From: an uncultured Candidatus Saccharibacteria bacterium
GTDB taxonomy: Bacteria > Patescibacteriota > Minisyncoccia > Phycocordibacterales > DATDWN01
Direction of reading: 5' to 3'
Length of the DNA stretch: 64,000 nt
Assembly (NCBI GenBank): GCA_964603545.1
Contig: CAZRVD010000001.1
Coordinates: forward strand, 68,358 to 132,357
The notes beneath the pieces were generated by a model. It was not told the origin of the DNA and ran no database searches. It saw nothing but the letters and a program-made list of their open reading frames with translations. Position numbers and translations under genes: made by a program. Each line of letters opens with the position of its first letter. The stretch's first letter is position 1. Positions 1-61,944 of this stretch are shown here, in pieces.

Positions 1-30
1 ATGTGCGGGACTCCCGGTCGGGGCGATTGG

Positions 31-372
31 TCAGGGAAACTCAGTCACCCCATAAATCAATTGGGGTTTGAGTTCGATCCCGAACCTCTTTCGAGCGAAG
101 ACTTTTTGAACCTCGCCCTGCTTGGTGTAGTACGTGACGTTGATGGCGCGCCCATCAGATTCACCATCACATCTGATCGGTGATTCGGTTGCGTTGCAGG
201 CAAACAGGATCGCGAACTGGTCGTTTGGATAGCGTTGGATTGCATCGTTGATCCGCCAGCCTGCATCCTGCAGTGCGTGAAAAGCCATATCTCGCCGGAG
301 ACCGTTCTTCAACGGCTCCCAGCCTGCCAGGATGACCACAGCAAACATTGCGGTAAACAGAATCTTCTTCAA
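31..372 (-). CDS. small secreted protein (high-GC cassette), probable TTG start
   Basis: ORF 31..420 trimmed to the TTG at 370-372, which is preceded by AGGGAGGG. Signal-peptide-like N-terminus KKILFTAMFAVVILAGW. GC-rich relative to the backbone. No recognisable family. Confidence 0.35.
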   Translation of the reverse strand: MKKILFTAMFAVVILAGWEPLKNGLRRDMAFHALQDAGWRINDAIQRYPNDQFAILFACNATESPIRCDGESDGRAINVTYYTKQGEVQKVFARKRFGIELKPQLIYGVTEFP

Positions 373-409
373 TTTAAGGCCCTCCCTTGGCCCATTAATA
401 TCCACACTC

Positions 410-438
410 ACTATACACATAAAAAGTATCTATGTCAA
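410..438 (-). promoter_or_regulatory. sigma70-like promoter (minus strand: TTGACA-N17-TATAGT) for cassette ORF 31..372
   Basis: The reverse complement of 410-438 reads TTGACAtagatactttttatgtgTATAGT, followed by AGGGAGGG and the TTG start. Confidence 0.4.
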
Positions 439-525
439 GTGGTATTTTACTTATAAAAATAGCTAAAAATCGCTTGTTTATGGTGATAGAATTTGCTATA
501 ATGAACGGACCAAAAACACATAAAT

Positions 526-2610
526 ATGGCTAATAAAGTAGAGAAAAAGTCAGTAAAGAAAGACAGCTACGGAGCGGATGCAATCCAGATCCTAGAGGGC
601 CTAGAACCGGTCAGAAAGCGACCTGGAATGTACATTGGTACAACAGGAACAGATGGACTACATCACCTAATAACAGAGATTTTTGATAACTCGAGAGACG
701 AAGCCATGGGTGGTTTTGCAAACGAAATTGAAGTCACTCTTTTGCCTGGAAATAGAATTCGAGTTACAGACAACGGGCGAGGTATTCCTGTAGACATTCA
801 CAAGCAGACAAAAGTTTCAGCACTTGAAACTATTATGACGACTCTCCATGCTGGAGGAAAGTTTGGTGGCGAAGACGGTGGCTACAAAGTTTCTGGAGGA
901 CTGCACGGAGTGGGAGCTTCTGTTGTGAACGCACTTTCTATTTATTGTAAAGTTACTGTACATAAAGATGGGGGTGTTTATATGCAGGAGTATTCTCAAG
1001 GTAAGAAAAAAGCTCTTGTAAAGAAGATCGGTTCGACAAAACTAAATGGAACTATCTCAGTTTTTGAACCAGACCCAGCTATTTTCCCAATTATAGAATT
1101 CGATGCACAGAGAGTTATGGATCATATGCGACAGCAAGCATATCTAGTAAAAGGTCTAAGAATCACAGTAAACTACGCATCAAAATACGAGGGTAAAATA
1201 AAAGAAGATGAAGTTTTCAAAATTTCTGAACTTGGACTGGAGATTCCTTCTATGAGCTTTTATTTTGAAGGAGGACTTCTTTCTCTTGTTAAGTTTATGA
1301 ATTCTACAGAGAAGCCAATTCACAAAAATGTTTTCTATATAGAGAAAAAAACAAACGAATGGGAATCTGTAGAAGTATCACTCCAATATGTAGATGACAT
1401 AACTTGTAGACTTTCAGCTTTTGCAAACAATATCAGTACTCCAGAAGGTGGAACACATGTTACCGGCTTCAAAACTGCACTCACAAGAACACTCAACACA
1501 TATGGTAGAAAAAATAATTTAATAAAAGAAAGCGAAGACAATTTTACCGGGGAAGATGTTCTAGAAGGACTCACAGCTGTTGTTTCTGTAAAGCTTCGAG
1601 AGATTCAGTTCGAAGGACAAACTAAAGCTAAGCTTGGGACAGTTGAAGCGCAGGGTGCGGTTAATACTATTTTCTCAGAAGCATTTACATATTTCCTAGA
1701 AGAGAATCCAGACGATGCAAAGGCTATAATAAACAAAGTCGTTCTTGCTCTTAAGGCTCGTAAGGCTGCAAAAGCTGCAAAAGATTCTGTGCTTCGGAAA
1801 GGCGCGCTAGAGGGCATGACTCTCCCTGGAAAGCTTGCAGACTGTCAGAGTAAATCTGCGGAGGATTCTGAACTGTTTATTGTGGAGGGAGATTCTGCGG
1901 GAGGTACTGCAAAAACTGGACGAGACAGAAGAACACAGGCAATTTTGCCACTCCGAGGAAAAATTTTAAACATTGAACGTGCAAGACTAGACAGATTGCT
2001 TGAATCAGAACAAATTAAAAATTTGGTTATCGCACTCGGTACCGCGATAGGAGATACATTTGATATTTTTAAACTGCGATATCACAAAATAATTATTGCA
2101 ACAGATGCGGACGTTGATGGTGCACACATAAGAACACTTATTCTTACACTACTTTACAGATACTTCAGACCACTTATCGATGGAGGATTTATTTATATTG
2201 CTCAACCACCACTTTATAAAATAAAGAAAGGTAAAGAAGTTTTCTACGCTTATTCTGACGAGGATAAAGAAAAAATAGTTGGAAAAGCAGAAGTTGCTGA
2301 AATCACAGAAGTAGACGAAATGCCTGAAGAAGAAGAGGATTTGGATTCCGCCGGAGGTAAAAAATCATCAGAGGCGAAAGCTTCGAGAGCGGCAAAAATT
2401 TCTATTCAACGATACAAAGGTCTTGGAGAAATGAATTCAGAAGAATTGTGGGAAACAACCATGGACCCTGCACGTAGAATTCTAAAACAGGTTGCAGTAG
2501 AATCCACAGCATCTGCCGACAAAGTGTTTGATGTTTTGATGGGTACGGATGTGCCGGCTCGTAAGTCTTTCATCCAAAGTAATGCTACAAAAGCGAATTT
2601 AGATATTTAA
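526..2610 (+). CDS. gyrB: DNA gyrase subunit B
   Basis: 694 aa. GHKL ATPase N-terminus (LEGLEPVRKRPGMYIGTTG), Toprim motif EGDSAGG and a GyrB C-terminal domain. Confidence 0.9.
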   Translation: MANKVEKKSVKKDSYGADAIQILEGLEPVRKRPGMYIGTTGTDGLHHLITEIFDNSRDEAMGGFANEIEVTLLPGNRIRVTDNGRGIPVDIHKQTKVSALETIMTTLHAGGKFGGEDGGYKVSGGLHGVGASVVNALSIYCKVTVHKDGGVYMQEYSQGKKKALVKKIGSTKLNGTISVFEPDPAIFPIIEFDAQRVMDHMRQQAYLVKGLRITVNYASKYEGKIKEDEVFKISELGLEIPSMSFYFEGGLLSLVKFMNSTEKPIHKNVFYIEKKTNEWESVEVSLQYVDDITCRLSAFANNISTPEGGTHVTGFKTALTRTLNTYGRKNNLIKESEDNFTGEDVLEGLTAVVSVKLREIQFEGQTKAKLGTVEAQGAVNTIFSEAFTYFLEENPDDAKAIINKVVLALKARKAAKAAKDSVLRKGALEGMTLPGKLADCQSKSAEDSELFIVEGDSAGGTAKTGRDRRTQAILPLRGKILNIERARLDRLLESEQIKNLVIALGTAIGDTFDIFKLRYHKIIIATDADVDGAHIRTLILTLLYRYFRPLIDGGFIYIAQPPLYKIKKGKEVFYAYSDEDKEKIVGKAEVAEITEVDEMPEEEEDLDSAGGKKSSEAKASRAAKISIQRYKGLGEMNSEELWETTMDPARRILKQVAVESTASADKVFDVLMGTDVPARKSFIQSNATKANLDI

Positions 2611-2613
2611 TTT

Positions 2614-5176: not shown

Positions 5177-5216
5177 TTGACATTATGTATAAATGGTTTA
5201 TTGTGAATGTGGGGGG
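5177..5216 (+). promoter_or_regulatory. promoter region of high-GC cassette A (TTGACA at 5177-5182, GGGGGG RBS at 5211-5216)
   Basis: TTGACAttatgtataaatggtttattgtgaatgtGGGGGGattaataccATG. The exact -10 is ambiguous. The region is divergent from the thrS start. Confidence 0.35.
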
Positions 5217-5225
5217 ATTAATACC

Positions 5226-5456
5226 ATGACTGCAGGATTTGAGAACGTGAATGTCTCGGCCCTCCTCCAAGAATTAGGTATCAGTCGAGATAGAGCAGTC
5301 GAACTGCTTCAAGTCAAATCTGATACTCTTGCTGATTGGCAGGCCAGAGGGGAGATGCCTAAGGGAGTTCGGGGGTATCTGAAGCATCTTGTCCGTGGAG
5401 GAGAACCATATCGTGAATTGGTGGCAGTTTCACTTCGTGACAGGATAAACCAATGA
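5226..5456 (+). CDS. small HTH DNA-binding protein (AlpA/Xis/MerR-like), high-GC cassette A
   Basis: 76 aa from the ATG at 5226. LLQELGISRDRAVELL followed by LADWQARGEMPKG resembles the AlpA/excisionase-type HTH pattern (compare WIKEGKFP). GC clearly above the backbone. Confidence 0.45.
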   Translation: MTAGFENVNVSALLQELGISRDRAVELLQVKSDTLADWQARGEMPKGVRGYLKHLVRGGEPYRELVAVSLRDRINQ

Positions 5457-5641
5457 GTATACCTAGGACAAGCTGGATGGTAGGTGCTGTAGGTGCTGTG
5501 GCTGGCAGTATTCTGTTCACCTACGGACATAATCTCAACAGCTTTCTCGCGTCCATTCTAAGCATGATCTTCGTTGCATGTATCCTTAGGGCTCTTCTTG
5601 GTTTCGGTCCAGTCCAAGACAGGAATTCCCGCGAGCAATAA
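5453..5641 (+). CDS. small two-TM membrane protein, translationally coupled (ATGA overlap) to the HTH gene
   Basis: 62 aa with two hydrophobic segments (MVGAVGAVAGSILF; ILSMIFVACILRALLGF). Its start overlaps the upstream stop by 4 nt. Confidence 0.4.
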   Translation: MSIPRTSWMVGAVGAVAGSILFTYGHNLNSFLASILSMIFVACILRALLGFGPVQDRNSREQ

Positions 5642-5658: not shown

Positions 5659-5714
5659 CGACGGAGTGTGTTGCATTCACACTCCGCGTCGAGATTCGTC
5701 TCGGCGTTTTTCTT
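5659..5714 (+). terminator. tandem hairpins ending in a T-run (terminator of cassette A)
   Basis: GACGGAGTGTG-ttgcatt-CACACTCCGCGTC, then CGAGA-TTCG-TCTCGG-CGTTTTTCTTT. Confidence 0.6.
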
Positions 5715-5923: not shown

Positions 5924-8900
5924 TTACTCCATCAGCTTTACTTTGTCGATCAATATTGACTTCTCTCCATTTCTTAAAGAAAAAGTCCCTTTTATAACGA
6001 TGCAACTTTCAGGGATTAAAATGTCTTGAAATTCTTCAAAAATTTTAGGGAAAGCAACAACATCTATACTATCTGTTAGATCTGCAAGTTTTAGGAAAAT
6101 CATTTTGTCTCCCTTTTTTGTCATTACACTTCGGATTTCTTCTACAATACCCCCCACAACAACCGGAGCTCTTTCTGTGGCAGTTTCTTTTAATTTTTTG
6201 ATATTAGTTTCTCTTCCTTCCAACTTATGTTTAAAAGAATCCAGTGGGTGTCCAGAAATATAAAGTCCGAGAAGTTCCTTTTCCCATAAAAGTTTTTCAG
6301 CTGAGTCACCTGGCGGAGATAGATCAAGTTCAATTTCTGAAGCTTTAGTCGGAGTGGACATCAAAGAGAAAAGTGAATCTTGGTCAGATTCCTTGCTTCG
6401 CTCTTCTTTGTTGAAAGTAAGAAGTTTATCTAGATTAAAAAGTAATGTGCTTCGATCACTGCCTTTTGGTGTTATGGATTCAAGTGCTCCTGTTTTAATA
6501 AGAGCTTCCATAGATTTTTTATTTAAATTTTTATCTTTTATTCTACGAAGGAAATCAGAAAGGGTAGTAAAAGGCCCATTTGCTTTTCTTTCTGTAATTA
6601 TTGATGTTGCGATTCCTTCACCAAAGTTTTTAATTGTTGTTAGTCCAAAACGGATTGAGTCTTTTCCATTTGTCTTTATTACGGTGAAGCCTTCAAAAGA
6701 TTGATTTACATCTGGGGGAAGAACAAGAATTCCCATTCTTTTACACTCGCTAATTATTTCTGAAATCATGTCTGTGTCGCCCGATTCTGCTGTAAGGACG
6801 GCGGACATATATATTGCGGGGAAGTTGGCTTTCATATAAGCAGTTTGGTAAGCCACTTTTCCATAGCTTGCTGCGTGGGCTTTGTTGAAGCCATAACCCT
6901 GGAAAGGTTCAAACAAATTCCACAATTCTTCTGCTTTTTTCTCTGTCATCCCGCCATGCGTCTGACAGCCTTCAACGAATTTTACGTGTTGTTTTGCCAT
7001 TTCTTCGCGGATTTTTTTACCAACAGCCTTTCGGAATTTATCCACTTCACCCCAATTGTATCCAGCCACTTCAATAGCTGTGTAAAGAAGGTCATCTTGG
7101 TAAACTAGCACTCCAAAAGTTTTGTCCAAAAAATTTTTCATTTTTGGATGCAAATACGTCACGGGTTTTCTACCATGCTTTCTCTCAATGTATTCTTTTA
7201 TGTTATCCATCGGTCCTGGGCGGTACAGAGCTACCATAACATTTATGTCGTGAATTACAGTTGGCTTCAAATCCTTAAGAGATCGAGTCATCCCATCCCC
7301 GTTAAGTTGGAAAAGTCCAACGGTTTCTCCGCGGGCGAGCATTTCAAAAGTTTTTTTGTCATCCACTGGTACGTTTTCAATATCAATTTTTACTCCTTCC
7401 AGTTTTTCTGCTAGTTTTACGGCGTCTGCCAAAATAGAAAGGTTTCGTATTCCAAGAAAATCAAATTTAAGTAACCCCACGCCGTCTTCACCAACATCAT
7501 TCATGTCGTATTGAGTTATTATTTTATTGTCACCTTTTGTGTCGTATTGTAGTGGCACATAGTCAGTAAGTGGTGTAGGGGAGATCACCACACCAGCTGC
7601 GTGCACAGAGATGTGTCTTGCTCCACCCTCTATTTTTTTTGCCATATCTATTATTTTTCGGACATCAGTTTGTTCTGTGTACATAGTTTTGAGTTCCGGG
7701 TTTTCTTTCAGTGCTCTCTCAAGGGTCATTGGGAAACCTTGTGCGCCCATGGGGATTTGTTTGGCTATCGCATCTCCCAGACTATATGGAAAACCAAGTG
7801 CACGTGTTACATCTCGCACTGCACCGCGAGCCGCCATTGTTCCAAATGTTCCGATTTGAGCCACTTTGTCTATACCGTATTTCTGCCTTGCATAGTCAAT
7901 CATTTCATCACGTCTATCATCGGCAAAATCCATATCAATATCTGGTGCTGATGGTCTGTCTGGGTTTAGAAATCTTTCAAACGGTAGTTTGTATTCAATA
8001 GGGTTTACGTTTGTGATTCCAGAAAGAAAAGTAACGAGTGAACCAGCCACCGAGCCTCTAATTGTTGTTAGTATTCCATGTTTGTGAGCGTAGTCTAGCA
8101 GGTCATATACAACAAGAAAGTATGGTGCGTATCCTTTGTCCTTGATAACCTTAAGTTCGTATTCTATTCTTTCTAATAGTTCTGGAGTCTTTTCTAGTTT
8201 TCTTTTTGGGATACCTTCAAAAACTATTCTTCGAAACTCGTCATCGTGAGAGAGACCACTTTCTACGATAAAATTTGGTAAAAACCATTTTCCAATAGAA
8301 ATTTCTAGGTTACATCTGTTTGCAATTTTCTCGTTGTTTATTAGCGCCTCTGGTAAATCTTTGAAATATTTCTCTACGATTTTTTGATTTATAAAAGAAA
8401 AGTCGTCTGTTCCTTCTTCCACCTTTTCGTCACTTTGTGACTGAATAGCAAGTAGAGTTTCGCGAGCCACTCTATCTTCTTTGTTTATATAATAGACATC
8501 ATGATTTGCAACAATGGGGGTGTTTGTCTCTTTGGCAAAAGTTATCAACTTTTTCATATTTTCCTCGTGGCCTTTCATCTCTGGGTGGTGAGTGATTTCA
8601 ATATAAAAGTTCGGGACTTCAGTTGTCCCAGCGAATGTTTTTTTGTACCATTCTACTCTTTCTAGTGCCTGTTCCTTATTTCCTGTTTCAAGCGAGGATA
8701 AAATATCGTTTGAAAAAGATGGGGCAATTGCAATAAGTCCATCAGAGTATTTTTCCAAAAGTTCCCTGTCCACTCTCGGTTTGTAGTAGAAACCTTCAAG
8801 GTGCGCGAGTGTCACAAGTTGGATTAAATTTTTATAACCTTTTTCATTTTTCGCAAGAAGCACTAGTCTGTAGCGCTGTTTGTCTATACCGGTTTGTTTT

Positions 8901-9133
8901 TCATGGCGACTTCTGTAGGCAACGTATGCGTCAATTCCAATAATGGGTTTAATTTCTTTTTTCTTGCAAGCCTTGTAAAACTCAATAGCTCCGTAAAGGT
9001 TTGCGTTGTCTGTTAGAGCTAAAGCCGTCATGTCGTTTTTCTTAGCTTCCTCAATTAATGCGTCTATTTTAGGTAGGGCATTAAGTAGGGAGTAGTGGGA
9101 ATGCGTGTGGAGGTGGGTGAAACGGGGTGCCAT
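5924..9133 (-). CDS. dnaE: DNA polymerase III alpha subunit
   Basis: 1069 aa. PHP domain N-terminus (HLHTHSHYSLL), polymerase core and a C-terminal OB fold. Confidence 0.9.
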   Translation of the reverse strand: MAPRFTHLHTHSHYSLLNALPKIDALIEEAKKNDMTALALTDNANLYGAIEFYKACKKKEIKPIIGIDAYVAYRSRHEKQTGIDKQRYRLVLLAKNEKGYKNLIQLVTLAHLEGFYYKPRVDRELLEKYSDGLIAIAPSFSNDILSSLETGNKEQALERVEWYKKTFAGTTEVPNFYIEITHHPEMKGHEENMKKLITFAKETNTPIVANHDVYYINKEDRVARETLLAIQSQSDEKVEEGTDDFSFINQKIVEKYFKDLPEALINNEKIANRCNLEISIGKWFLPNFIVESGLSHDDEFRRIVFEGIPKRKLEKTPELLERIEYELKVIKDKGYAPYFLVVYDLLDYAHKHGILTTIRGSVAGSLVTFLSGITNVNPIEYKLPFERFLNPDRPSAPDIDMDFADDRRDEMIDYARQKYGIDKVAQIGTFGTMAARGAVRDVTRALGFPYSLGDAIAKQIPMGAQGFPMTLERALKENPELKTMYTEQTDVRKIIDMAKKIEGGARHISVHAAGVVISPTPLTDYVPLQYDTKGDNKIITQYDMNDVGEDGVGLLKFDFLGIRNLSILADAVKLAEKLEGVKIDIENVPVDDKKTFEMLARGETVGLFQLNGDGMTRSLKDLKPTVIHDINVMVALYRPGPMDNIKEYIERKHGRKPVTYLHPKMKNFLDKTFGVLVYQDDLLYTAIEVAGYNWGEVDKFRKAVGKKIREEMAKQHVKFVEGCQTHGGMTEKKAEELWNLFEPFQGYGFNKAHAASYGKVAYQTAYMKANFPAIYMSAVLTAESGDTDMISEIISECKRMGILVLPPDVNQSFEGFTVIKTNGKDSIRFGLTTIKNFGEGIATSIITERKANGPFTTLSDFLRRIKDKNLNKKSMEALIKTGALESITPKGSDRSTLLFNLDKLLTFNKEERSKESDQDSLFSLMSTPTKASEIELDLSPPGDSAEKLLWEKELLGLYISGHPLDSFKHKLEGRETNIKKLKETATERAPVVVGGIVEEIRSVMTKKGDKMIFLKLADLTDSIDVVAFPKIFEEFQDILIPESCIVIKGTFSLRNGEKSILIDKVKLME

Positions 9134-9196
9134 ATGAAAGGATTATAGCACGAGGTTTTTATAGTAGTTCTATTGAAAAATTGCTAGAGTTATTGC

Positions 9197-11839: not shown

Positions 11840-11846
11840 GTGGCTT

Positions 11847-11957
11847 TCAAATTTGGCGAACTTCTCGTTCCCAAATTAAAAATACTCATCACCTTACTAC
11901 TTGTAAGGCTCTTCGTCTTTTTAATTTCTCTCGTCGGATTTCACTCAAATTTGAAAG
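11847..11957 (+). repeat. intergenic long-hairpin repeat family 1, copy 1 (after rnc)
   Basis: Terminal CAAATTTG/CAAATTTG, an AU-rich inverted flank (AAAATTAAAAATA / TTTTTAATTT) and apical CCTTAC-TACTT-GTAAGG. Homologous to the copies at 18157, 36238, 39505 and 51402. Confidence 0.7.
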
Positions 11958-11993: not shown

Positions 11994-12023
11994 TTGACAG
12001 GCACACCTAAAGTGTGCTACAAT
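11994..12023 (+). promoter_or_regulatory. consensus sigma70-like promoter with an embedded palindromic operator (high-GC cassette B)
   Basis: TTGACA(11994-11999)-N18-TACAAT(12018-12023). The spacer contains the perfect inverted repeat GCACAC-ctaaa-GTGTGC. RBS AAAGGAGGG at 12032-12040. Confidence 0.6.
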
Positions 12024-12042
12024 CGTGGTGAAAGGAGGGCTT

Positions 12043-12456
12043 ATGACTGAGGTCCAAGTGAGGGCTATTTTGGCCGGATTGTTCTTCGGGATTTGGCCGA
12101 TTGTGATGAGTTGGACGGGACTGAAAGGCAACGCCTCAGCAGCAGCGTTCAGCGGTATCACTTTTCTGATCGTGATACCCTTGGCACTGCAGGGAACGAG
12201 TTTCGCAGATTTGGCTCAGGCCAACTGGAAGTTTGCTCTGCTAGCTGGCCTTACTGGCGCATTGGGAGTGATCGCCTTCAACGGCGGTCTCGCCATTACG
12301 AACAAGTATACCGTCAGCACTTTCTTTATCACGATGATCGCAGTTCAGATCATGGTGCCGGCGGTCTACAAGGTGTTCGCGACTCGTTTCGTTACGCCCG
12401 AGCAACTCATTGGATTTACGTTGGCCATGTCGGCGACATATCTCCTGAATAAGTAA
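12043..12456 (+). CDS. small 4-TM membrane protein (EamA/DMT-like half-transporter?), high-GC
   Basis: 137 aa from the ATG at 12043 (the track ORF starts at 12025). Four hydrophobic helices. GC clearly above the backbone. The overlapping ORFs 12093..12452 and 12241..12483 are frame artefacts. Confidence 0.45.
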   Translation: MTEVQVRAILAGLFFGIWPIVMSWTGLKGNASAAAFSGITFLIVIPLALQGTSFADLAQANWKFALLAGLTGALGVIAFNGGLAITNKYTVSTFFITMIAVQIMVPAVYKVFATRFVTPEQLIGFTLAMSATYLLNK

Positions 12457-12461
12457 TTCGT

Positions 12462-12512
12462 AAGCACACTTAAAGAAAGGCACATTCGCTTTTCGAGAGT
12501 GTGCTTTTTCTG
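12462..12512 (+). terminator. hairpin terminator of cassette B that reuses the GCACAC/GTGTGC arms
   Basis: AAGCACACT...(27-nt loop)...AGTGTGCTTTTTC. Confidence 0.45.
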
Positions 12513-49499: not shown

Positions 49500-49518
49500 G
49501 TTCTTCGTTTTCGAAAAA

Positions 49519-49565
49519 GGCTCTGGGTGTGTGGCGTCACACACCCAGAGCCTTCGTTCGTTTTG
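49519..49565 (+). terminator. 15-bp perfect-stem terminator after K2
   Basis: GGCTCTGGGTGTGTG-gcg-tCACACACCCAGAGCC ttcgttcgTTTT. Confidence 0.65.
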
Positions 49566-49566
49566 G

Positions 49567-49599
49567 TCATACGACCTCTGCTCGCTTTCAGCGATTGTT
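49567..49599 (-). repeat. 33-bp direct-repeat copy 2 (31/33 identical to 49094-49126), abutting the typA stop codon
   Basis: GGTCATACGACCtCTGCTCGCTTTCAGCGaTTG versus GGTCATACGACCaCTGCTCGCTTTCAGCGgTTG. Confidence 0.6.
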
Positions 49600-51388
49600 A
49601 TTTTCTAACTGATTTCTTTCTCAATCGGACGGATTTTGGGGTTATCTCAATATACTCATCATCCGACATGATTTCCATAGCTTTTTCAATATCTAGTTTA
49701 AAAGTAGCGGCAAGGTAAACAGAACCATCTGAACTAGAAGATCGCATGTTTGTTAGTTGTTTACCTTTTGTTGGGTTTACTATTAGATCTTCACCCTTTG
49801 ATACGTTTCCAATAACCATTCCAACATAAACTTCTGTTCCGGGGTCTATGTATAGTGTTCCTCTTTGTTGTAGGTTATCTAATGCAAAAGCAAGTGCTTT
49901 ACCTTTTTCCATTGAAACCATTGAACCGTAGCTAGTACGATTTATTTCTCCAACATATTCTCTGAATTCAACAAATCGTGAAGAAAGTATTCCGAGACCT
50001 TTTGTATCTACTACAAATTGTCCACGGTATCCCAAAAGTCCTCTTGTTGGTATTTCAAACGTCAGCCGTTGTGTTCCGTGACCTTGTTTTACGTTCATTA
50101 GAACTCCGCGTCTTTCTGTAAGTCTTGAAATAACTGAGCCAGCGATTTCGTCTGGAACATCCACCGTGACTTCTTCAAAAGGTTCCATTTTTATCCCATT
50201 AACTTCTTTTATAATAACTTGTGGCTGTGAGACTTGGAGTTCAAAACCTTCTCGTCTCATATTTTCACAAAGTATTGCAATATGAAGTTCACCACGACCA
50301 TATACGGTGTAGTATTCGTTGTTGTTCCAATCCACTTTTAGTCCGACGTTTATTTCCAGCTCCTTTTCAAGTCTGTCGCGGATTTGTCTACCTGTAACAA
50401 ACTTTCCTTCCTTTCCTGCGAAAGGTGAGTCGTTAACTAAAAAGTTTAGAGAAATTGTAGGTTCATCAATGTTGATAGATGGTAGTGGTTCCGCATCTTC
50501 ACTTTGGCAAATAGTGTCTCCAATATAAACTGTTGGAAGTCCAGCAATCATCACAATGTCTCCTGCGGAAGCCTCTTTTATTTCTACTCTTTTGGTTCCT
50601 TCAAAACTGAAAAGTTTAGTAAGCTTTCCAGAAACAGTAGCTGGCGCTTTTGCATCGTGATGTTGTTTCACAAACACGGCATCATTGTTTTTAATAACAC
50701 CTTCATAAACTCTACAAACTGCAAGTCGTCCAAGGAAGTTGTCGTATGCTAAATTAAACGATTGCAGTCTTGCGGGCGCGGTTTTGTCACCTGTAGCAGG
50801 TGGGACTTCTTTTAAAATTGTTTCAAGAAGGGGGGTAAGGTCCTTGCTTTCATCTATTAGTTTCATTTTTGCAATACCTTGTCTTCCTATAGCATACACA
50901 GTTGTGAAATTAAGCTGTTCATCATTTGCTCCAAGTTCCATAAACAATTCCAAAACCATTTCGTGTACATCATCTGGTCTTGCAGCTGGTTTATCTATTT
51001 TGTTTATAATAACGATTGGTTTAAGTCCGAGTTCAAGGGATTTTTTCAAAACAAAACGAGTTTGTGGCATTGGCCCTTCTTGGGCGTCTACTAAAAGTAA
51101 AACTGTATCAATAGAACGTAGTACGCGTTCTACTTCAGAACCAAAGTCTGAGTGGCCTGGAGTATCCACAATGTTGATTTTTGTTACTTCTCGGCCTGAA
51201 TCAGCTGGGGGATAGTAAACTGATGTATTTTTTGCATATATAGTAATACCACGCTCTTGTTCTAGAGCGTTTGAGTCCATGGTTACACCTTCCTCGGTTA
51301 CCATGCCAGTCTGGCGCATTAGGGCGTCAGTTAGGGTTGTTTTGCCGTGGTCGACGTGGGCTATAATTGCTATGTTACGAATTTCCAT
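49598..51388 (-). CDS. typA: GTP-binding protein TypA/BipA
   Basis: N-terminus MEIRNIAIIAHVDHGKTTLTDALM. EF-G-like domains. 596 aa. Confidence 0.85.
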   Translation of the reverse strand: MEIRNIAIIAHVDHGKTTLTDALMRQTGMVTEEGVTMDSNALEQERGITIYAKNTSVYYPPADSGREVTKINIVDTPGHSDFGSEVERVLRSIDTVLLLVDAQEGPMPQTRFVLKKSLELGLKPIVIINKIDKPAARPDDVHEMVLELFMELGANDEQLNFTTVYAIGRQGIAKMKLIDESKDLTPLLETILKEVPPATGDKTAPARLQSFNLAYDNFLGRLAVCRVYEGVIKNNDAVFVKQHHDAKAPATVSGKLTKLFSFEGTKRVEIKEASAGDIVMIAGLPTVYIGDTICQSEDAEPLPSINIDEPTISLNFLVNDSPFAGKEGKFVTGRQIRDRLEKELEINVGLKVDWNNNEYYTVYGRGELHIAILCENMRREGFELQVSQPQVIIKEVNGIKMEPFEEVTVDVPDEIAGSVISRLTERRGVLMNVKQGHGTQRLTFEIPTRGLLGYRGQFVVDTKGLGILSSRFVEFREYVGEINRTSYGSMVSMEKGKALAFALDNLQQRGTLYIDPGTEVYVGMVIGNVSKGEDLIVNPTKGKQLTNMRSSSSDGSVYLAATFKLDIEKAMEIMSDDEYIEITPKSVRLRKKSVRK

Positions 51389-51401
51389 ATTGTTGTGAAC
51401 T

Positions 51402-51515
51402 TCCAGATTTGGCCAATCTCATCTTCTAAAATTTAAAAATACTCCTCACCTTAGCGCTAACTAAGGCTCGTCACATTTTTAAATTTTATAAGCGACCTTG
51501 TCTCAAATCTGAAAG
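51402..51515 (+). repeat. long-hairpin repeat family 1, copy 5 (typA-dedA divergent spacer)
   Basis: Terminal CCAGATTTGG / CAAATCTG (compensatory pair). Apical CCTTAG-cgctaa-CTAAGG (compensatory pair). Confidence 0.7.
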
Positions 51516-55109: not shown

Positions 55110-55624
55110 TGGATATATTTTCACACGGACTGTATGGTGGAGTGGCTTTTGGTCGGAAGACCAAGAGAGACTACATTACTGCTTTTTTGTTTGGTATTGG
55201 GCCAGACCTTCTTGCTTTTGGTCCATTTTTCATTTTTGCTTTTTTAGGGTTTGTTCCATTTCCAACAGGAAGAATTGAACCCCCAAGTTCGAACGTTATA
55301 CCAGAGTATATTCACTCACTTTATAATTTTACGCACAGTTTTATTATATACGCTCTATTTTTTGCTTTGCTTTGGTTTTTAGGCAAAAAAACTTTTGCCA
55401 AATTGACTTTGGGATGGCCACTTCACATTCTAATTGATATGCCGGTACACTCGCTCAACTTTTTCCCAACTCCATTTTTATGGCCGGTGTCAGATTTTCA
55501 TATTGACGGAGTTCCTTGGAGTAACCCTTATATATTTTTTCCTAATATTATAGTTTTACTTGTTCTTTATGTTTTCTGGTTTTTTAAGAAAAAAAGAAAA
55601 AGATTAGAAAACCAAAACAATTAG
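55109..55624 (+). CDS. membrane-bound metal-dependent hydrolase, YdjM/DUF457 family (native low-GC copy)
   Basis: FGIGPDLLAFGPF and WPLHILIDMPVH motifs. 171 aa. Low GC. Confidence 0.6.
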   Translation: MDIFSHGLYGGVAFGRKTKRDYITAFLFGIGPDLLAFGPFFIFAFLGFVPFPTGRIEPPSSNVIPEYIHSLYNFTHSFIIYALFFALLWFLGKKTFAKLTLGWPLHILIDMPVHSLNFFPTPFLWPVSDFHIDGVPWSNPYIFFPNIIVLLVLYVFWFFKKKRKRLENQNN

Positions 55625-56392
55625 AATTAAACAGGCAATTACAATACGATAAATTCCAAAATAGGTAAGTGAGATTTTTGTTAAATATTTCTCCATTAAA
55701 TATAATGTAAAATAGCTTGTAATAAAGGCTACTAATATTCCAAAACTCAAACTACCATAAGAATTTATCGTTTCAAATATTTCTCTAGATTTGTATGCAT
55801 CGTACAAAACTGCCACTCCCAATGTTGGAAGTGCTAGTACAAAAGTGTACTCGATTATTACAGCTTTTTTTATACCTCTTAAAATACCGGCAACTATAGT
55901 TGCGCCAGAACGAGATACTCCGGGGATAATGGCTAGTGCTTGGACTAGTCCAACCACAAAAGCATCCATAATTGTCATTTCAATTTTACCAAAGGTTGCT
56001 GAGTCAGTGACTTCATTTTGTTTCATAAAAACTTTTTCAAGATATATAAAAATTATTCCCCCGATAAGTAGAGCTAGTGACAGCACCAACATGTTTCCTT
56101 CAAGTAATTTTTTAAAAGATTTATATAAAACAAAACCTAAGATCGCACTTGGTAGGAAACTAATACATATGTTGATAAAGAGTTTTTTGTTAGTTAAGAC
56201 CTTTTTTGCAAAGAAAAATAGACCAGCAAGTAAGGCTCCTAGTTGTATAACAAGTAAATAAAATTTTATATACGGCAGAGTCAAGTTTACTCCAAGGATT
56301 TTTGAAGTGACTATAAGATGCGCGGTGGAGGATATTGGTAGGAACTCTGTCAGTCCTTCTAAAAAAGAGATAAATATTAAGTTTAAATCCAT
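55604..56392 (-). CDS. uppP: undecaprenyl-diphosphatase
   Basis: N-terminus LEGLTEFLPISSTAHLI is the BacA/UppP signature. 262 aa, 7-8 TM. Confidence 0.85.
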   Translation of the reverse strand: MDLNLIFISFLEGLTEFLPISSTAHLIVTSKILGVNLTLPYIKFYLLVIQLGALLAGLFFFAKKVLTNKKLFINICISFLPSAILGFVLYKSFKKLLEGNMLVLSLALLIGGIIFIYLEKVFMKQNEVTDSATFGKIEMTIMDAFVVGLVQALAIIPGVSRSGATIVAGILRGIKKAVIIEYTFVLALPTLGVAVLYDAYKSREIFETINSYGSLSFGILVAFITSYFTLYLMEKYLTKISLTYFGIYRIVIACLILIVLVF

Positions 56393-56856: not shown

Positions 56857-56907
56857 CCAAAAGCGAAACCCGCCGAGACTGCACAATGTCCGTGCTGTAA
56901 CGGCGGG
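56857..56907 (-). terminator. terminator of the high-GC YdjM-like gene
   Basis: CCCGCCG...CGGCGGG stem. On the minus strand it is followed by TTTCGCTTTTGG. Confidence 0.45.
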
Positions 56908-56915
56908 GGAGAGAT

Positions 56916-57452
56916 TCATAAAGACATCTCGGGGACTTTTATTGGTGCTACTCTAACCACCATCTTACTTCTAGGCCTGAATTTCCATGCGAACCACCAT
57001 AGGAGTAAGGTGTCGATCGTGCCAATCGTGATTGACCACTGTTTCGGCCAGTCACGTTTCCACCAGTTGTGAAGCTGGTGGTGGAAGTTCTCGTAGTCCT
57101 TAAGCCACTGTGACTGTGGGAGGTAGTCAATCTGGGTCCATGCCTGTACAAGGTCTGGACCGATCCCAGCAATGAAGATGAGCCACACAACCCGCCTGTA
57201 TTCTGGTTGGTTTTTGGTAAGTTTGTGACATAGCAAGAACGAAATTGCTATGTCGGTCTGGGCCCACCAGAAGTTAAAGGTGTAAGGGCTCGTGTATTCC
57301 GAACCCGAGAACAGTCCTGGCTCGAGATGTGGTATGAGGTCGAACGGCACATGTGCCAGTATGACCATGATAGGAAACCAGATCCATGATGTTTCTGGTC
57401 TGGTTTTTATGGCCACAGCTATGGCAGGTAAAATGTGCGCGCTCGGCAACAT
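56916..57452 (-). CDS. YdjM/DUF457-family membrane hydrolase, high-GC xenolog of 55109..55624 (cassette L)
   Basis: IAGIGPDLV and HVPFDLIPH correspond to the motifs of the low-GC paralog. GC clearly higher. GGAGG 9 nt upstream of the ATG. Confidence 0.55.
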   Translation of the reverse strand: MLPSAHILPAIAVAIKTRPETSWIWFPIMVILAHVPFDLIPHLEPGLFSGSEYTSPYTFNFWWAQTDIAISFLLCHKLTKNQPEYRRVVWLIFIAGIGPDLVQAWTQIDYLPQSQWLKDYENFHHQLHNWWKRDWPKQWSITIGTIDTLLLWWFAWKFRPRSKMVVRVAPIKVPEMSL

Positions 57453-57521
57453 GAGACAATCCTCCGGTTTTTTGTGAACAGTCTGAGGATTAGCTTATCT
57501 CAAACTTAAATTAATATCAAA

Positions 57522-59790: not shown

Positions 59791-59901
59791 ATCGTATTAC
59801 AATAAATATATATTGTTTATTACAAATAGTCACATGAGTCTAGTTTGTATATACAGAATCGCCCGACGCAGTCGGGCGACCTGTCGGGCGTGTAGTTTGC
59901 C

Positions 59902-60084
59902 TTATTCACGAGGGATAGCCATCTCTGGCACCTGTCCCGCGAATTCTTTCAAACACTGGTCATAGATATCAAGCCAAAATCTGGCCCAATTACCACCGTC
60001 TCGCCCTTCTCTGTAGGCGATTTCCATCTCTCTTTCTGCGATGTGCATCGCACGTTCCGCTGGGTTGTTTGTGTGGTGCCTCAT
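59902..60084 (-). CDS. hypothetical 60-aa protein, high-GC cassette M
   Basis: Minus-strand TTGACA-N16-TATAAC promoter (60100-60128), AGGAGG, ATG. Downstream hairpin CGCCCGAC-tgcg-TCGGGCG at 59861-59880. Confidence 0.4.
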   Translation of the reverse strand: MRHHTNNPAERAMHIAEREMEIAYREGRDGGNWARFWLDIYDQCLKEFAGQVPEMAIPRE

Positions 60085-60099
60085 GACAAACCTCCTGTG

Positions 60100-60128
60100 T
60101 TTGTTATAACAATTATAAATAATCTGTC
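60100..60128 (-). promoter_or_regulatory. promoter of cassette M
   Basis: The reverse complement reads TTGACAgattatttataattgtTATAACaaacacAGGAGGtttgtcATG. Confidence 0.45.
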
Positions 60129-60248
60129 AACTATCAACTCTTGCGATAGAGTAAAAAAGAAGTAATTGCGTTGCTTTCTTACTTATTTTTGATATTATCT
60201 ATTCTGTTAGAATTTGTACTTTGAAAATTAAATAAATGATTAATAAGC

Positions 60249-60320
60249 TCCGGTGTAGCTCAGTGGTAGAGCAATCGCCTGTTAAGCGATTGGTCGTAGG
60301 TTCGATCCCTACCGCCGGAG
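60249..60320 (+). tRNA. tRNA-Asn (anticodon GTT)
   Basis: Acceptor stem TCCGGTG/CGCCGGA. D arm GCTC-AGTGGTA-GAGC. Anticodon stem ATCGC/GCGAT with loop CTGTTAA. T arm GTAGG-TTCGATC-CCTAC. Discriminator G. No encoded CCA. Confidence 0.85.
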
Positions 60321-60363
60321 CTTAGTAATCATTTAAATTTTATAAATTTATTACAATTGAATT

Positions 60364-60585
60364 ATGAATAATGAAAACAGCCCACGAGTTGATTCTTTAT
60401 CTGAAGGCTTCACTACAGAATTTGAAGTTTTAGCTAGTCGTTTAAAAGAATTAGAAGTGAAAAGACGAAAACTAGAAGATGAAGGGATGAATGGTATTCC
60501 GAAAGAAGAGGATGTTTCAGAAGCAGCTAGTATTTCCTTAGAAATGCTTGATATTAAAGAAGAATTGAAAAAACTTCAAAACTAG
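60364..60585 (+). CDS. small acidic coiled-coil protein (hypothetical) between the tRNA and its 3'-end repeat
   Basis: 73 aa, low GC, weak RBS. Confidence 0.25.
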   Translation: MNNENSPRVDSLSEGFTTEFEVLASRLKELEVKRRKLEDEGMNGIPKEEDVSEAASISLEMLDIKEELKKLQN

Positions 60586-60660: not shown

Positions 60661-60683
60661 CCGCCGGAGCTTAGTAATCATTT
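60661..60683 (+). repeat. 23-bp exact direct repeat of the tRNA-Asn 3' end plus its downstream flank (att-like)
   Basis: CCGCCGGAGCTTAGTAATCATTT at 60312-60334 and again at 60661-60683. Confidence 0.75.
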
Positions 60684-60691
60684 TTTATAAA

Positions 60692-60725
60692 TTGACACAA
60701 ATGTCATTTTAATAGATAATCCTTC
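60692..60725 (+). promoter_or_regulatory. promoter of cassette N (TTGACA with overlapping TGACA-caaa-TGTCA palindrome)
   Basis: TTGACAcaaatgtcattttaaTAGATAAT, then AAAGG, then ATG at 60759. Confidence 0.45.
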
Positions 60726-60758
60726 TCGGAACTTCTTCCAAGAAAGGTTGGGTTAGCT

Positions 60759-61523
60759 ATGCTTTTGAGAAAAGGAGACCACTCTGTATGGGCAACGTCT
60801 GAAGGCGGGTCCATACTCTCGTGGCAATGGCGAGAGCACAACATTCTCGGACCAGCACGTTTTGTGCGTGTAGATGGAGAACTTAAACTTCGCGGTGAGA
60901 CGCACTGGTGTTACCCGAACTTTGGGTCTGTGCCAGAGGGTGCCAATTTCAATTACCCCAAACATGGGCACCTTCGAAACGTCGTTCTTGACATTGAACG
61001 ACTTTACGACGATTCTGCACAGTTCTATCTGCCATCCAATCGTACCGGCAACTCCACCGAAGTCAGGGTTGACTTGGGAGTTCATAATTGGGGGGTTAGC
61101 ACATGGCTTTCTGCCATCAATCGAGGCGATGAGCGTGTGCCAATGTTGGTTGGGAGTCACCCCTACTTTGTAGTTCCGGAAGATGGCCTTGAAGTCTGGG
61201 TGAACGGCAAGTTGGAAGCTGAGGTTGTACGCCTAGGAGCTGGCCTATTGCAATCGGCAGGAGTTTTCTCGAAGGCGCGAATCCTGCCTCGATTTGGTGG
61301 TAGGGTCGCGGTAAACCTCAAGGGTCTCGGAGAGGTGCATCTCGGTTTGCACGATCACTGTTCACACATTGTCATTTGGTCTGATTGCCGGGCGGAGTAC
61401 ATTTGTGTTGAACCCGTATTTGGTGAACCCGGGGAATTTGGTACCGAGGAGGGAAATTGGCTTAGCAAGAATGAGTCCACTTTCTGCCAGGTGGACTTCA
61501 ACTTCAAACCGCGCTCGGTATAA
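60759..61523 (+). CDS. aldose 1-epimerase-family protein (glucose-6-phosphate 1-epimerase/YeaD-like), high-GC cassette N
   Basis: GGSILSWQ, HPYF and ICVEP motifs. GC-rich. Confidence 0.55.
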   Translation: MLLRKGDHSVWATSEGGSILSWQWREHNILGPARFVRVDGELKLRGETHWCYPNFGSVPEGANFNYPKHGHLRNVVLDIERLYDDSAQFYLPSNRTGNSTEVRVDLGVHNWGVSTWLSAINRGDERVPMLVGSHPYFVVPEDGLEVWVNGKLEAEVVRLGAGLLQSAGVFSKARILPRFGGRVAVNLKGLGEVHLGLHDHCSHIVIWSDCRAEYICVEPVFGEPGEFGTEEGNWLSKNESTFCQVDFNFKPRSV

Positions 61524-61644
61524 CCGCGTGCGATCAAGAAAGGATGGGCTCGCTTTAGCTACGGCTAAGGGCGGGCCCGTTTCATTTAAGTTAATTATTT
61601 GGTATATTAATAATTAGAAATTTCAGTTCATCTGGAGGTCTTAC

Positions 61645-61845
61645 ATGGGTAATCGGGGAACTACTCCTTCGTGGGATGATGAGCAAATCGCATTGTACGG
61701 CCTTTTTGGACACATGGACAATGTGAGAAGAGGTTACAGGATGAGGGAAGTCTCTCGTAAGAAAGCGCGACGCCGGAATATAAAGGAGGATCTCAAGCGT
61801 CGGCTTGACTCCAAAAGAGAAGAAAGGAGTCGTTCAAAGAAGTGA
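61645..61845 (+). CDS. hypothetical 66-aa basic protein, high-GC cassette O
   Basis: TTTCAT-N17-TATATT promoter, GGAGG RBS, ATG at 61645. Arg/Lys-rich C-terminus. Confidence 0.35.
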   Translation: MGNRGTTPSWDDEQIALYGLFGHMDNVRRGYRMREVSRKKARRRNIKEDLKRRLDSKREERSRSKK

Positions 61846-61875
61846 ATCTGCCGAACTCTACACTAGTTCTACAGT

Positions 61876-61918
61876 CCGCCCCGAAGGCCAAACGCTTTTG
61901 CGGGCGGCTTTCGTTTTG
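61876..61918 (+). terminator. hairpin terminator after cassette O
   Basis: CCGCCCCG...CGGGCGG, then cTTTCGTTTTG. Confidence 0.4.
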
Positions 61919-61944
61919 TATTTAGGTGGGTGTATAATGTAGGT

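Follow-up and report, generated by a model that had tools for sequence, protein, structure and literature searches.

GC-rich promoter-to-terminator gene units between the housekeeping genes of a Zambryskibacteria-like bacterium: a possible long-term accessory gene pool

Results

The window (the whole stretch of DNA analysed here, 64,000 nucleotides) is part of contig CAZRVD010000001.1 of GenBank assembly GCA_964603545.1 (positions 68,358 to 132,357), deposited as an uncultured Candidatus Saccharibacteria bacterium. It exhibits an AT-rich backbone of conserved genes (gyrB, dnaE, rpoBC, rpoD, dnaG, aminoacyl-tRNA synthetases and ribosomal proteins), between which lie short GC-rich gene units, here called cassettes, the subject of this report. 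A Pfam scan of 30 backbone open reading frames (ORFs) identified a confident domain (E <=1e-5) in 26, all with ordinary housekeeping or envelope functions. The single tRNA gene of the window is a tRNA-Asn (60249-60321; Rfam and ARAGORN), and no other RNA family was detected in the window by ARAGORN or by Rfam, either at the gathering threshold or at E-values up to 1. The relatives of the RpoC sequence (79-91% identity over the best segment) are nearly all from metagenome-assembled genomes (MAGs) of the candidate phyla radiation (CPR)/Patescibacteria, labelled Candidatus Zambryskibacteria, Parcubacteria, Paceibacterota or "uncultured Saccharibacteria". In a single MAG, "Parcubacteria group bacterium Gr01-1014_46", deposited counterparts exist for three cassette proteins: CEO12_36 and CEO12_58 at 100% identity, and CEO12_37 at 87% with a frameshift-repaired query. 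The window belongs to the chromosome of a tiny, Zambryskibacteria-like CPR bacterium from groundwater.

The original prediction, made from the sequence alone, had singled out sixteen segments of about 50-65% GC. Their pooled GC content is 51.8% (range 0.46-0.61, so that the range first given was slightly high) against 36.5% for the remainder of the window, and together they amount to 8,234 bp, or 12.9% of its length. The 17 island ORFs exhibit GC contents of 0.48-0.64 and third-codon-position GC contents (GC3) of 0.39-0.80; the corresponding values for 51 backbone ORFs are 0.25-0.43 and 0.19-0.37. The two GC ranges do not overlap (Mann-Whitney p ~9e-10), and 13 small backbone ORFs, taken as a control for size, are all at or below 0.40. 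Every GC-rich segment is located between backbone genes, as had been predicted. The step in GC is sharp and matches the predicted transcription unit, with mean values of 0.28 for promoters, 0.52 for 5' untranslated regions (UTRs), 0.54 for ORFs and 0.58 for 3' UTRs plus terminators, the mean of backbone intergenic DNA being 0.32. The excess starts at the predicted transcription start: the promoter and the DNA 5' of it remain at about 0.28-0.30. It does not leak into the neighbouring genes either, the ends of core genes next to cassettes having a GC3 of 0.311 versus 0.310 (p = 0.37).

A unit consists of an AT-rich promoter, in which the TTGACA is often perfect, then a GC-rich leader with a Shine-Dalgarno (SD) sequence, a small ORF, and a GC hairpin followed by a T-run. 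A promoter agreeing with at least 10 of 12 consensus positions was found for 7 of the 17 island units and 4 of 46 backbone genes, an SD of at least 5 nucleotides (nt) for 10/17 and 1/46, and a hairpin of -12 kcal/mol or lower with a T-run for 12/17 and 3/46. By eye, 13 of the 17 units exhibit a GGAG or GAGG core. The earlier claim that nearly every segment carries a near-perfect promoter, an SD and a terminator thus had the right direction but was overstated. Backbone genes are essentially without SD, and their 5' regions are A/T-rich. For 8 of 26 backbone genes heading a transcription unit, the distance from the end of a predicted -10 box to the ATG is 6-10 nt, and the gene looks leaderless; examples are 5924-9133, 45679-46260 and 55604-56392 on the minus strand, and the genes at 20584 and 52281. 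Judged from such signals, the native mode of the backbone would seem to be leaderless or very short-leader mRNAs. The same SD-less, short-leader pattern is seen in CPR-like loci of 45-58% GC (L049-L051, named as explained below). The cassettes are set apart from the backbone by composition, codon usage, initiation signal, termination signal and -35 usage, and their description as discrete, self-contained accessory units of foreign appearance is borne out.

Cassette 1 (1-440, minus strand, GC 0.53) exhibits a promoter TTGACA-17-TATAGT (438-410, 11/12), an SD GGGAGGG and an ORF of about 115 amino acids (aa; 31-378, minus strand) with a hydrophobic N-terminal anchor, its 3' end lying beyond the window edge; the protein has no match in Pfam, PHROG, NCBIfam or PADLOC. 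The list of segments in the original prediction holds overall, with a few refinements. Segment 5177-5715 (cassette 2, plus strand, GC 0.48) consists of two overlapping ORFs read from one promoter (TTGACA-16-TATTGT, 5177-5204): 5226-5456 (76 aa) and 5453-5641 (62 aa, hydrophobic) overlap at ATGA, both without a family match in Pfam, and are followed by a terminator (5686-5707) with a T-run. Segment 48560-49600 contains two units and 40854-41638 a frameshifted gene, both described below. Cassette 3 (11994-12512, plus strand) has a promoter TTGACA-18-TACAAT, an SD AAGGAGG, a membrane-like ORF (12043-12456, 137 aa) and a hairpin terminator. Cassette 4 (14828-15160, minus strand, GC 0.54) has a -10 box TATAAT, an SD GAGGAGGTG and an ORF of 71 aa (14874-15089), and ends in a GC hairpin without a clear T-run (14828-14860). 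In cassette 5 (20183-20530, minus strand) a promoter TTGACA-16-TATAGT and an SD GAGGAGG precede an ORF of 82 aa (~20228-20476, N-terminus MTKEEM) without a family match in Pfam, PHROG or PADLOC, with the terminator at 20183-20215. Cassette 6 (23399-23775, plus strand, GC 0.48) exhibits a -35 box TTGACG, an SD GGGGAG, an ORF of 96 aa (23448-23738) and a short GC hairpin 3' of the stop codon, and cassette 7 (25640-25975, minus strand) a promoter TTGACA-17-TAAGAT, an SD AGGAG, an ORF of 67 aa with 64% GC (25708-25911) and a strong terminator.

Short arrays of units occupy 39627-41638, 48560-49600 and 60690-61918. The first opens with cassette 8 (39627-40470, plus strand), which has a -35 box TTGACA at 39663, an ORF for a secreted protein of 214-221 aa (39743/39764-40408) and a terminator at ~40425-40466. 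Cassette 9 (40500-40831, plus strand) has an SD GGGGAGGTGA, an ORF of 67 aa (40550-40753) rich in cysteine (CxxC...CxxxC) and a terminator. Cassette 10 (40854-41640, minus strand) is the most GC-rich (60%), with a promoter TTGACA-17-TACACT and a terminator at 40856-40880; compared with intact homologues of 217-233 aa in L011, L016, L020, L025 and L030, its gene (41542-40906) is split by a 1-nt frameshift, which is either a pseudogene mutation or an assembly error. The second array consists of cassette 12 (48560-49052, plus strand, GC 0.58; SD AGGGAG, ORF 48653-49003 of 116 aa, terminator), whose protein has no Pfam match even at E-values up to 5, and cassette 13 (49053-49600, plus strand; SD AGGGAGG, ORF 49173-49499 of 108 aa with a weak helix-turn-helix (HTH) signal, strong terminator). 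Cassette 13 is the only one with flanking repeats: 38-nt direct repeats GGTCATACGACC...CTGCTCGCTTTCAGCG bracket it at 49088-49125 and 49560-49597, with a further copy at 49054-49091, and neither the repeat nor its core motif was found in 54 loci of relatives. Cassette 14 (56857-57500, minus strand) has an SD GGAGGA, a multi-pass membrane-like ORF (56916-57452, 178 aa) and a terminator; cassette 15 (59860-60130, minus strand) a -35 box TTGACA, an SD AGGAGGT, an ORF of 60 aa (59902-60084) and a GC hairpin at 59860-59885. The third array contains cassette 16 (60690-61590, plus strand), with a promoter TTGACA-17-GATAAT, a distantly aldose-1-epimerase-like ORF of 254 aa (60759-61523) and a terminator, and cassette 17 (61590-61918, plus strand), with an SD GGAGGT, a basic ORF of 66 aa (61645-61845) and a terminator.

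The remaining segment (45350-45675, plus strand) had been predicted to lack an ORF, and it does contain micro-ORFs only, in two short structured units, each of which ends in a terminator hairpin. Both units fold better than shuffled sequence (z-score -2.9). Micro-ORF 1 (45421-45429) is a minimal start-stop ORF, ATG-AGG-TAG, behind a strong SD and just 5' of a hairpin that sequesters a second SD; micro-ORF 2 (~45571-45612) reads MAMKAKKAAKKTA behind a strong SD and is followed by a strong terminator. No Rfam match was found for this segment, and the two units could be regulatory leaders or small RNAs.

For comparison we used loci from other genomes (L001 and so on), among them 40 around rpoC from MAGs of different species, projects and assemblers. 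Core-gene synteny is kept among them and GC-rich material lies in the same gaps, although contents vary by genome; the original prediction had asked for such a comparison of syntenic regions in order to score presence or absence of each cassette. About 14% of the ORFs in these loci exceed the GC of their own backbone by more than 0.09. Between rpoD and the AddA-like helicase gene lie 386 to 6000 bp in 27 genomes, 22 of which exhibit in this gap a 200-bp interval with at least 50% GC, and between the DsbA-like and the RNase-H-like genes 65 to 2194 bp in 17 genomes; over all slots, gap sizes are 15-6000 bp. In most relatives, GC-rich genes fill the slot of segment 45350-45675 over 1.1-2.2 kb. 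Variable slot DNA is not always GC-rich: a ~700-bp AT-rich indel is seen in the slot downstream of rpoD when L018 (~8460-9180) is aligned with L054. The GC-rich ORFs of the relatives fall into about 85 singletons and 12 small families, within which identity is 22-66%. An SD precedes 38% of them versus 9% in a reverse-complement control (backbone genes 7% versus 3%), and in CPR-like loci with a backbone of 45-58% GC the core genes are likewise without SD and the GC-richest genes have one. Since GC-rich blocks recur in loci from different species and projects, assembly chimeras are ruled out as their source.

The pair L008/L026 illustrates the turnover. L008 contains a complete promoter-to-terminator unit of ~1.2 kb with a 343-aa ORF, flanked by genes whose synonymous divergence (proportion of synonymous differences, pS) is 0.23; in L026 the unit is missing, and 4 nt separate the flanking stop codon from the start codon. 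The distant L015 has a homologue (37% identity) at this site, which favours a loss in L026. A second cassette of this pair, with a 71-aa ORF, is ~98% identical in promoter, 5' UTR, SD, first 4 codons and terminator and only ~60% identical in the ORF body (pS 0.76, proportion of nonsynonymous differences pN 0.22, again with flanks at pS 0.23). At the slot of cassette 7, 5' of the operon starting at 26126, promoter, SD and terminator are kept in L001, L003 and L004, and L008/L026 keep a homologous frame, yet the ORFs (62-71 aa) of the window, L001/L004, L003 and L008/L026 are mutually unrecognisable. As a separate observation, the backbone of this pair is itself a mosaic: between L008 1-6200 and L026 1200-6300, identity at four-fold degenerate sites is 0.67-0.89, but it is ~0.52 in rpoB/rpoC, which suggests that core DNA was likewise recently recombined between lineages.

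Alleles of the cassette 8 family conflict with their flanks. Group A comprises L013, L052, L056 and L057 (78-92% DNA identity) and group B L018 and L054 (90%), the two groups being ~60% identical, but the adjacent rpoD and dnaG group L013 with L054 and L018 with L057 (and L056). In L018 and L054 the cassette (~90%) is more alike than rpoD (~85%). Taken together, these comparisons show gain or loss of whole units, replacement of alleles or ORFs within slots, and sharing of alleles against the grouping of the flanks. Local hypermutation was considered for the divergent ORF body of L008/L026 and set aside: the similarity of L018 and L054 and the allele-flank conflict fit exchange better. As no common att-like repeat or mobility gene was found in the window, exchange would most simply proceed by homologous recombination through the conserved flanks.

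The cassette 8 protein is identical to P0001 (CEO12_36), deposited with a different start (214 aa against a 221-aa ORF). A structure model (AlphaFold) of the 214-aa form, built from an alignment of 25 family members, has a mean confidence (pLDDT) of 89.6 and a predicted TM-score (pTM) of 0.80, and predicts 12 antiparallel strands behind a signal peptide. Its best matches in the PDB are the porins KdgM and NanC (4fqe, 4pr7, 2wjq; probability 1.0, TM-score 0.58-0.73), with 7-12% identity in the structural alignments. No family match was obtained at the sequence level in Pfam (KdgM-type profile included) or NCBIfam. The predicted product thus resembles KdgM/NanC porins in its signal peptide, 12-strand antiparallel barrel and length of ~190 residues, but differs in lacking sequence-level membership and in its host. 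CPR bacteria are, to our knowledge, generally described as being without an outer membrane. In six genomes, that of the window among them, the family follows rpoD, and in L046 and L051 it lies between gyrB and mraZ. Every sampled member of the CPR clade is in an AT-rich chromosome; a separate, well-conserved clade is found in genomes of 58-69% GC (contigs up to 4.3 Mb), and the split is deep (35-42% identity). For a barrel of this predicted type, bacteria that possess an outer membrane are the most plausible origin, which supports an ultimately foreign, non-CPR root for this family. For the beta-barrel family alone, the foreign origin in the original prediction therefore stands in this ultimate sense, and not as a recent import. 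The predicted barrel might insert into the bacterium's own envelope or into the outer membrane of a host.

None of the ~17 island proteins reaches the Pfam gathering score, compared with 26 of 30 backbone proteins with a confident match; the cargo accordingly does not represent a cellular donor genome sampled at random. Several functional labels in the original prediction have to be dropped or weakened. No Pfam match supports YdjM for 56916 or an HTH regulator for 5226 and 48653. The ORF 49173-49499 exhibits weak HTH signals only (HipB-like antitoxin TIGR03070 of NCBIfam, E 8.7e-7, below cut-off; Pfam HTH_3, E 0.14), the 40550 protein of cassette 9 weak Pfam matches to a Zn-ribbon and to DTW, and the cassette 16 protein a match to PF01263 (aldose epimerase, E 2.4e-5) below the gathering score. 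The cassette 16 protein is identical to P0027 (CEO12_58), its other relatives being at most 49% identical; two of its homologue contexts are CPR-like loci with a backbone of 50-58% GC. The GC of this epimerase-like family is 0.52, 0.54 and 0.66 in backbones of ~0.37, 0.50 and 0.58, always above the backbone. A search against 5.8 billion proteins, carried out for the proteins of cassettes 8, 16 and 10, found no near-identical donor for any of the three, the best non-self identities being 66%, 49% and 43%, the last from the sole non-self homologue of cassette 10. The cassette 10 family in L011, L016, L020, L025 and L030 has a GC3 of ~0.77. The protein of cassette 14 belongs to a family that is genuine although rare: of 1.84e9 cluster representatives, only 24 are related to it, the best at 49% identity. 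Homologues of cassette 3 (33-41% identity) occupy the rpoD-downstream slot of L001-L004 and L006, a site different from its locus in the window (12 kb). For cassette proteins, three scans of IMG/VR, searches of INPHARED phages and PLSDB plasmids by tblastn, and PADLOC gave negative or marginal results, and PHROGs yielded one marginal match among 10 (a generic transcription regulator, E 0.0018). The marginal matches in PHROGs, NCBIfam and PADLOC concern the ORF 49173-49499.

A mobility machinery was not detected either. No integrase, recombinase, transposase or reverse transcriptase was identified among the 30 Pfam-scanned backbone ORFs, nor an integrase or recombinase among the island ORFs. 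The cassette ends are ordinary hairpin and T-run terminators and exhibit no common repeat family, although no dedicated attC model was run. The cassette-type insertion mechanism initially suggested has, within that limit, found no support in an integrase, an attC-like site or a common flanking repeat.

The GC excess appears to be stable. Among seven CPR members of the beta-barrel family, protein identity is 34-68% and four-fold degenerate sites are 0.22-0.45 identical, where ~0.31 is expected by chance; these sites are saturated, and GC3 is nevertheless 0.68-0.81 in all seven. Several ORFs with protein-level homologues have a dN/dS (ratio of nonsynonymous to synonymous rates) of 0.15-0.2, so the beta-barrel genes are under constraint. 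In group A, polarised substitutions from G or C to A or T (strong to weak, S->W) number 48, against 38 in the reverse direction (W->S), with 28 against 16 at third positions. By our calculation, a gene with a GC3 of 0.74 decaying under the backbone equilibrium (GC3 ~0.29) would exhibit a ratio of ~7:1, which is rejected (p = 5e-5); 1:1 is not. The same method applied to the adjacent rpoD and dnaG yields a mirror-image ratio of ~0.6-1:1, and the mild S->W excess of group A is thus within parsimony bias. Two compositional equilibria appear to exist side by side in one chromosome. A correlation between island GC and backbone GC across loci (slope 0.65) was discounted, because the island threshold shifts with the backbone. 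Adenine-specific mutagenesis, as by a diversity-generating retroelement (DGR), was also considered and is not supported: A and T are both depleted, in a pattern that varies by cassette, the scanned ORFs contain no reverse-transcriptase domain, and no repeat pair of the template/variable (TR/VR) kind was found.

Discussion

We propose, with about an even chance of being right, that the GC-rich segments are the flexible genome of this lineage, organised as ~17 autonomous, mostly single-gene expression units and forming a long-term accessory pool whose GC content is stably high. Each unit would combine a resident AT-rich sigma-70-type promoter, a GC-rich transcribed body with an SD leader, a small lineage-restricted ORF and a GC hairpin terminator, its cargo being secreted, membrane or small basic proteins. 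Units would fill fixed slots between conserved core transcription units, and slot contents would change by gain or loss of whole units, by mutual replacement of divergent alleles or unrelated ORFs, and by alleles becoming common to lineages against their flanks, probably through homologous recombination in the conserved flanks or in the promoter/terminator frame and possibly after natural transformation. To judge from the predicted signals, the units would be translated via leader and SD in a genome otherwise without SD and often leaderless-like, and their GC-richness would be a stable, cassette-specific state limited to the transcribed part. This proposal lies close to the alternative mentioned in the original prediction, a set of accessory small proteins kept GC-rich, which agrees with the evidence better than its import reading.

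We infer that the block encoding the transcript is subject to some force in favour of G and C. Selection on leadered, structured mRNA is the cause to which we lean, with a little less than an even chance, because the excess is limited to the transcribed block and goes with leadered, SD-dependent mRNAs. Continual flux from an unsampled GC-richer gene pool appears rather unlikely as the cause, and GC-biased gene conversion less likely again. In a bolder form, which we regard as speculative and improbable, Zambryskibacteria and probably other CPR would run two expression regimes. The native one would be AT-rich, without SD and often leaderless; the second would consist of conserved slots (promoter, SD, terminator) with swapped GC-rich ORFs held at their own equilibrium by transcript selection or by a transcript-bounded exchange mechanism. 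Its cargo would be a host-interaction toolkit, and the porin-like barrel, from an organism without an outer membrane, might perhaps be inserted into the outer membrane of the host.

The reading favoured by the original prediction was a recent, independent import of each cassette from a high-GC donor, for instance the host of the episymbiont, before amelioration. Composition, codon usage, SD and terminators are indeed foreign to the backbone, genomes that are fairly close differ in the presence of cassettes, the beta-barrel has its relatives in genomes of 58-69% GC, and the most GC-rich cassette (10) may be a pseudogene. However, no close donor was found among 5.8e9 proteins, the non-CPR barrel clade is a separate group at only 35-42% identity, and the cargo fails Pfam in a manner unlike the backbone. 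The families are old within CPR, with saturated synonymous sites and unchanged GC3, their substitution spectrum is balanced, and the same slots are GC-rich over the whole lineage. Recent import is thus quite unlikely. A more serious contender, although we still think it unlikely, is transit through an unsampled mobile pool that is GC-richer and SD-using (CPR phages, plasmids, other CPR) at a rate faster than amelioration, with no GC-favouring force at all. Such flux agrees with the conflict between alleles and flanking backbone, with the movement of families between slots, with the nearly constant GC of the barrel gene in hosts whose flanks have 36-61% GC, with an architecture like that of phage morons, and with ORFan cargo typical of mobile elements. 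It is at odds with the negative or marginal results from IMG/VR, INPHARED, PLSDB, PHROGs and PADLOC (within the limits of these collections), with the absence of mobility genes in or near cassettes from the Pfam scans, with balanced substitutions in barrel genes that, in the CPR clade, were all sampled from AT-rich chromosomes, and with an epimerase-like gene that stays above its backbone even in a CPR genome of 58% GC.

GC-biased gene conversion would make the slots recombination hot spots in which biased heteroduplex repair lifts GC. Recombination at slots is directly evidenced, and the rise in GC, made up equally of G and C, affects every codon position as well as the untranslated parts; yet the boundaries are sharp, promoter and upstream DNA stay at ~0.28-0.30 GC, the adjacent core-gene ends exhibit no rise in GC3, and alleles ~60% identical cannot form the heteroduplex needed. 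The size of the effect (GC3 +0.3 to +0.5) is far above bacterial cases of the kind reportedly described by Lassalle et al. in 2015, and this explanation is very doubtful. GC-rich islands are said (Klein, Misulovin and Eddy, 2002) to mark RNA genes in some AT-rich genomes, so the blocks might be structured non-coding RNA genes with incidental ORFs, as the folding of the ORF-less 45350-45675 could suggest. But Rfam recognises the tRNA-Asn alone, SD and start-codon geometry is present, several ORFs have protein-level homologues at a dN/dS of 0.15-0.2, and the cassette 8 product is confidently modelled as a beta-barrel. The coding constraint refutes this explanation for the conserved families; as a general account it is highly improbable, and it could apply to 45350-45675 and perhaps to the smallest ORFs. 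Chimeric joins with high-GC reads, or faulty binning, are hardly credible. Although the sequence is from a MAG and GC-deviant segments are a classic warning of contamination, the same slots are GC-rich in ~40 MAGs from unrelated projects and assemblers, the junctions delimit functional units running from AT-rich promoter through GC-rich body to terminator, and flanks of homologous cassettes are conserved between genomes.

Several points weigh against a stable accessory pool held GC-rich by a force of its own. The GC of the barrel gene is nearly constant (0.47-0.64) over flanks of 0.36-0.61, which an external pool would fit as well as selection, and the two families differ: GC of the epimerase-like gene tracks the backbone with a positive offset, that of the barrel gene does not. 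The equilibrium test is based on one family and 86 changes polarised by parsimony, in alleles that themselves recombine. Each species is represented by one genome, so that short-timescale dynamics are drawn from few pairs (L008/L026, L018/L054, the L013 cluster). Homologues were found for 5 of the ~17 window cassettes, and the other ORFs may evolve differently or be non-coding in part. Promoters, leaderless starts and SD use are here predictions from sequence. The rpoBC genes and those of ribosomal proteins, which can be presumed to be highly expressed, are not GC-rich, and we know of no mechanism that favours GC in cassette transcripts alone.

Self-contained accessory units in hotspots are a known kind of arrangement. 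Phage "morons", reportedly described by Juhala, Hendrix and colleagues in 2000, are the nearest likeness. They carry a promoter and a terminator of their own, a deviant GC content, and an insertion site between genes that are adjacent in relatives (PMC3594210). The units here are similarly independent transcription units (promoter 7/17 and terminator 12/17, against 4/46 and 3/46 in the backbone), differ in GC from the neighbouring genes without overlap of ranges, are inserted between genes adjacent in relatives (L008/L026), and carry small accessory cargo that spreads horizontally. Unlike morons, they reside in a cellular chromosome of housekeeping genes where no phage genes were found and viral scans were negative, occur about once per 4 kb in conserved slots over the lineage, differ from the backbone in translation-initiation mode, and have a deviant GC that appears stable and is not a sign of recent arrival. 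For want of a phage context they are not strict morons.

The slots can also be compared with chromosomal hotspots of horizontal gene transfer (HGT) flanked by core genes, many of whose intervals reportedly lack mobility genes according to Oliveira, Touchon and Rocha (2017). As in such hotspots, accessory genes are confined to few core-gene intervals with high turnover, and recombination in the flanks is a probable route; contents vary at rpoD|helicase (27 genomes) and at DsbA-like|RNase-H-like (17 genomes). The difference is that each gene here is its own promoter-to-terminator unit, that signals can be kept while the ORF body alone changes, and that composition and SD use are uniformly deviant. 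With integron cassettes the units have in common their small, mostly single-gene make-up with little functional annotation and the occasional short array. However, neither integrase nor attI was found (30 Pfam-scanned backbone ORFs), cassette 13 alone has flanking 38-nt repeats in place of a common attC-like repeat, and the units have their own promoters, on both strands and at ~14 separate sites. The GeneMarkS-2 paper (PMC6028130) distinguishes an "atypical" gene class, and leaderless and non-SD genome classes. The window likewise combines, in one genome, non-SD or leaderless-like native genes with a compositionally atypical class; relative to these classes, it adds an opposite initiation signal (strong SD) and an apparently stable composition in the atypical genes. 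No earlier description of GC islands in Zambryskibacteria or Patescibacteria, or of a split of CPR genes into SD-led and leaderless, was found in the literature searched. We do not know of another case that combines dense, lineage-wide, SD-led units in an SD-less genome, kept signals with swapped ORF bodies, and an apparently stable GC excess.

A deviant GC content is customarily taken as a clock for recent transfer. If it is stable here past synonymous saturation, that inference would fail in this lineage. A GC excess together with an SD in an SD-less genome offers a simple signature for listing accessory, possibly host-interaction genes of CPR. Contamination filters may clip such segments from MAGs, and gene callers trained on a backbone without ribosome binding sites may mis-start cassette genes. 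The presence of leaderless or non-SD genes and strongly SD-led genes in one reduced genome makes a natural test case for the partitioning of initiation modes, and the predicted outer-membrane-type barrel in a CPR bacterium is a testable lead on the contact between episymbiont and host.

Other sequence features

An exact 23-bp direct repeat is located at 60312-60334 and 60661-60683, corresponding to the 3' end of the tRNA-Asn gene plus 13 nt. The two copies bracket a 326-bp AT-rich segment with a 73-aa ORF (60364-60585), and border two GC-rich cassettes while containing neither. This pair resembles the att-like trace of an integrated element that is small or decayed. An integrase/tRNA-linked genomic island was considered on this basis for the cassettes and rejected: there is one tRNA (Asn), the repeat 349 bp downstream brackets AT-rich DNA, and no integrase was found among the ORFs scanned.

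An AT-rich repeat of ~87 nt occurs at 11844-11930, 18154-18240 and 39495-39581, with partial copies at 36237-36289 and 51401-51500. It lies directly 3' of the stop codons of backbone genes (RNase III, the ORF 17839-18153 downstream of rpsP, rpoC and rpoD) and contains a hairpin CCTTAC-TACTT-GTAAGG followed by a T-rich tail. Two copies are just upstream of cassettes, these two only, and one copy is kept after rpoD in L002 (10040-10060). The repeat may be a weak terminator of the lineage's own or an element similar to repetitive extragenic palindromes (REP).

The promoter of the operon starting at 26126 (~26056-26090) reads TTGACTGGTGAACC-N3-GGTTCACTTATAAT. It exhibits an inverted repeat between the -35 and -10 boxes that is near-invariant in the window, L001, L003, L004, L008 and L026, and which looks like a candidate conserved operator.

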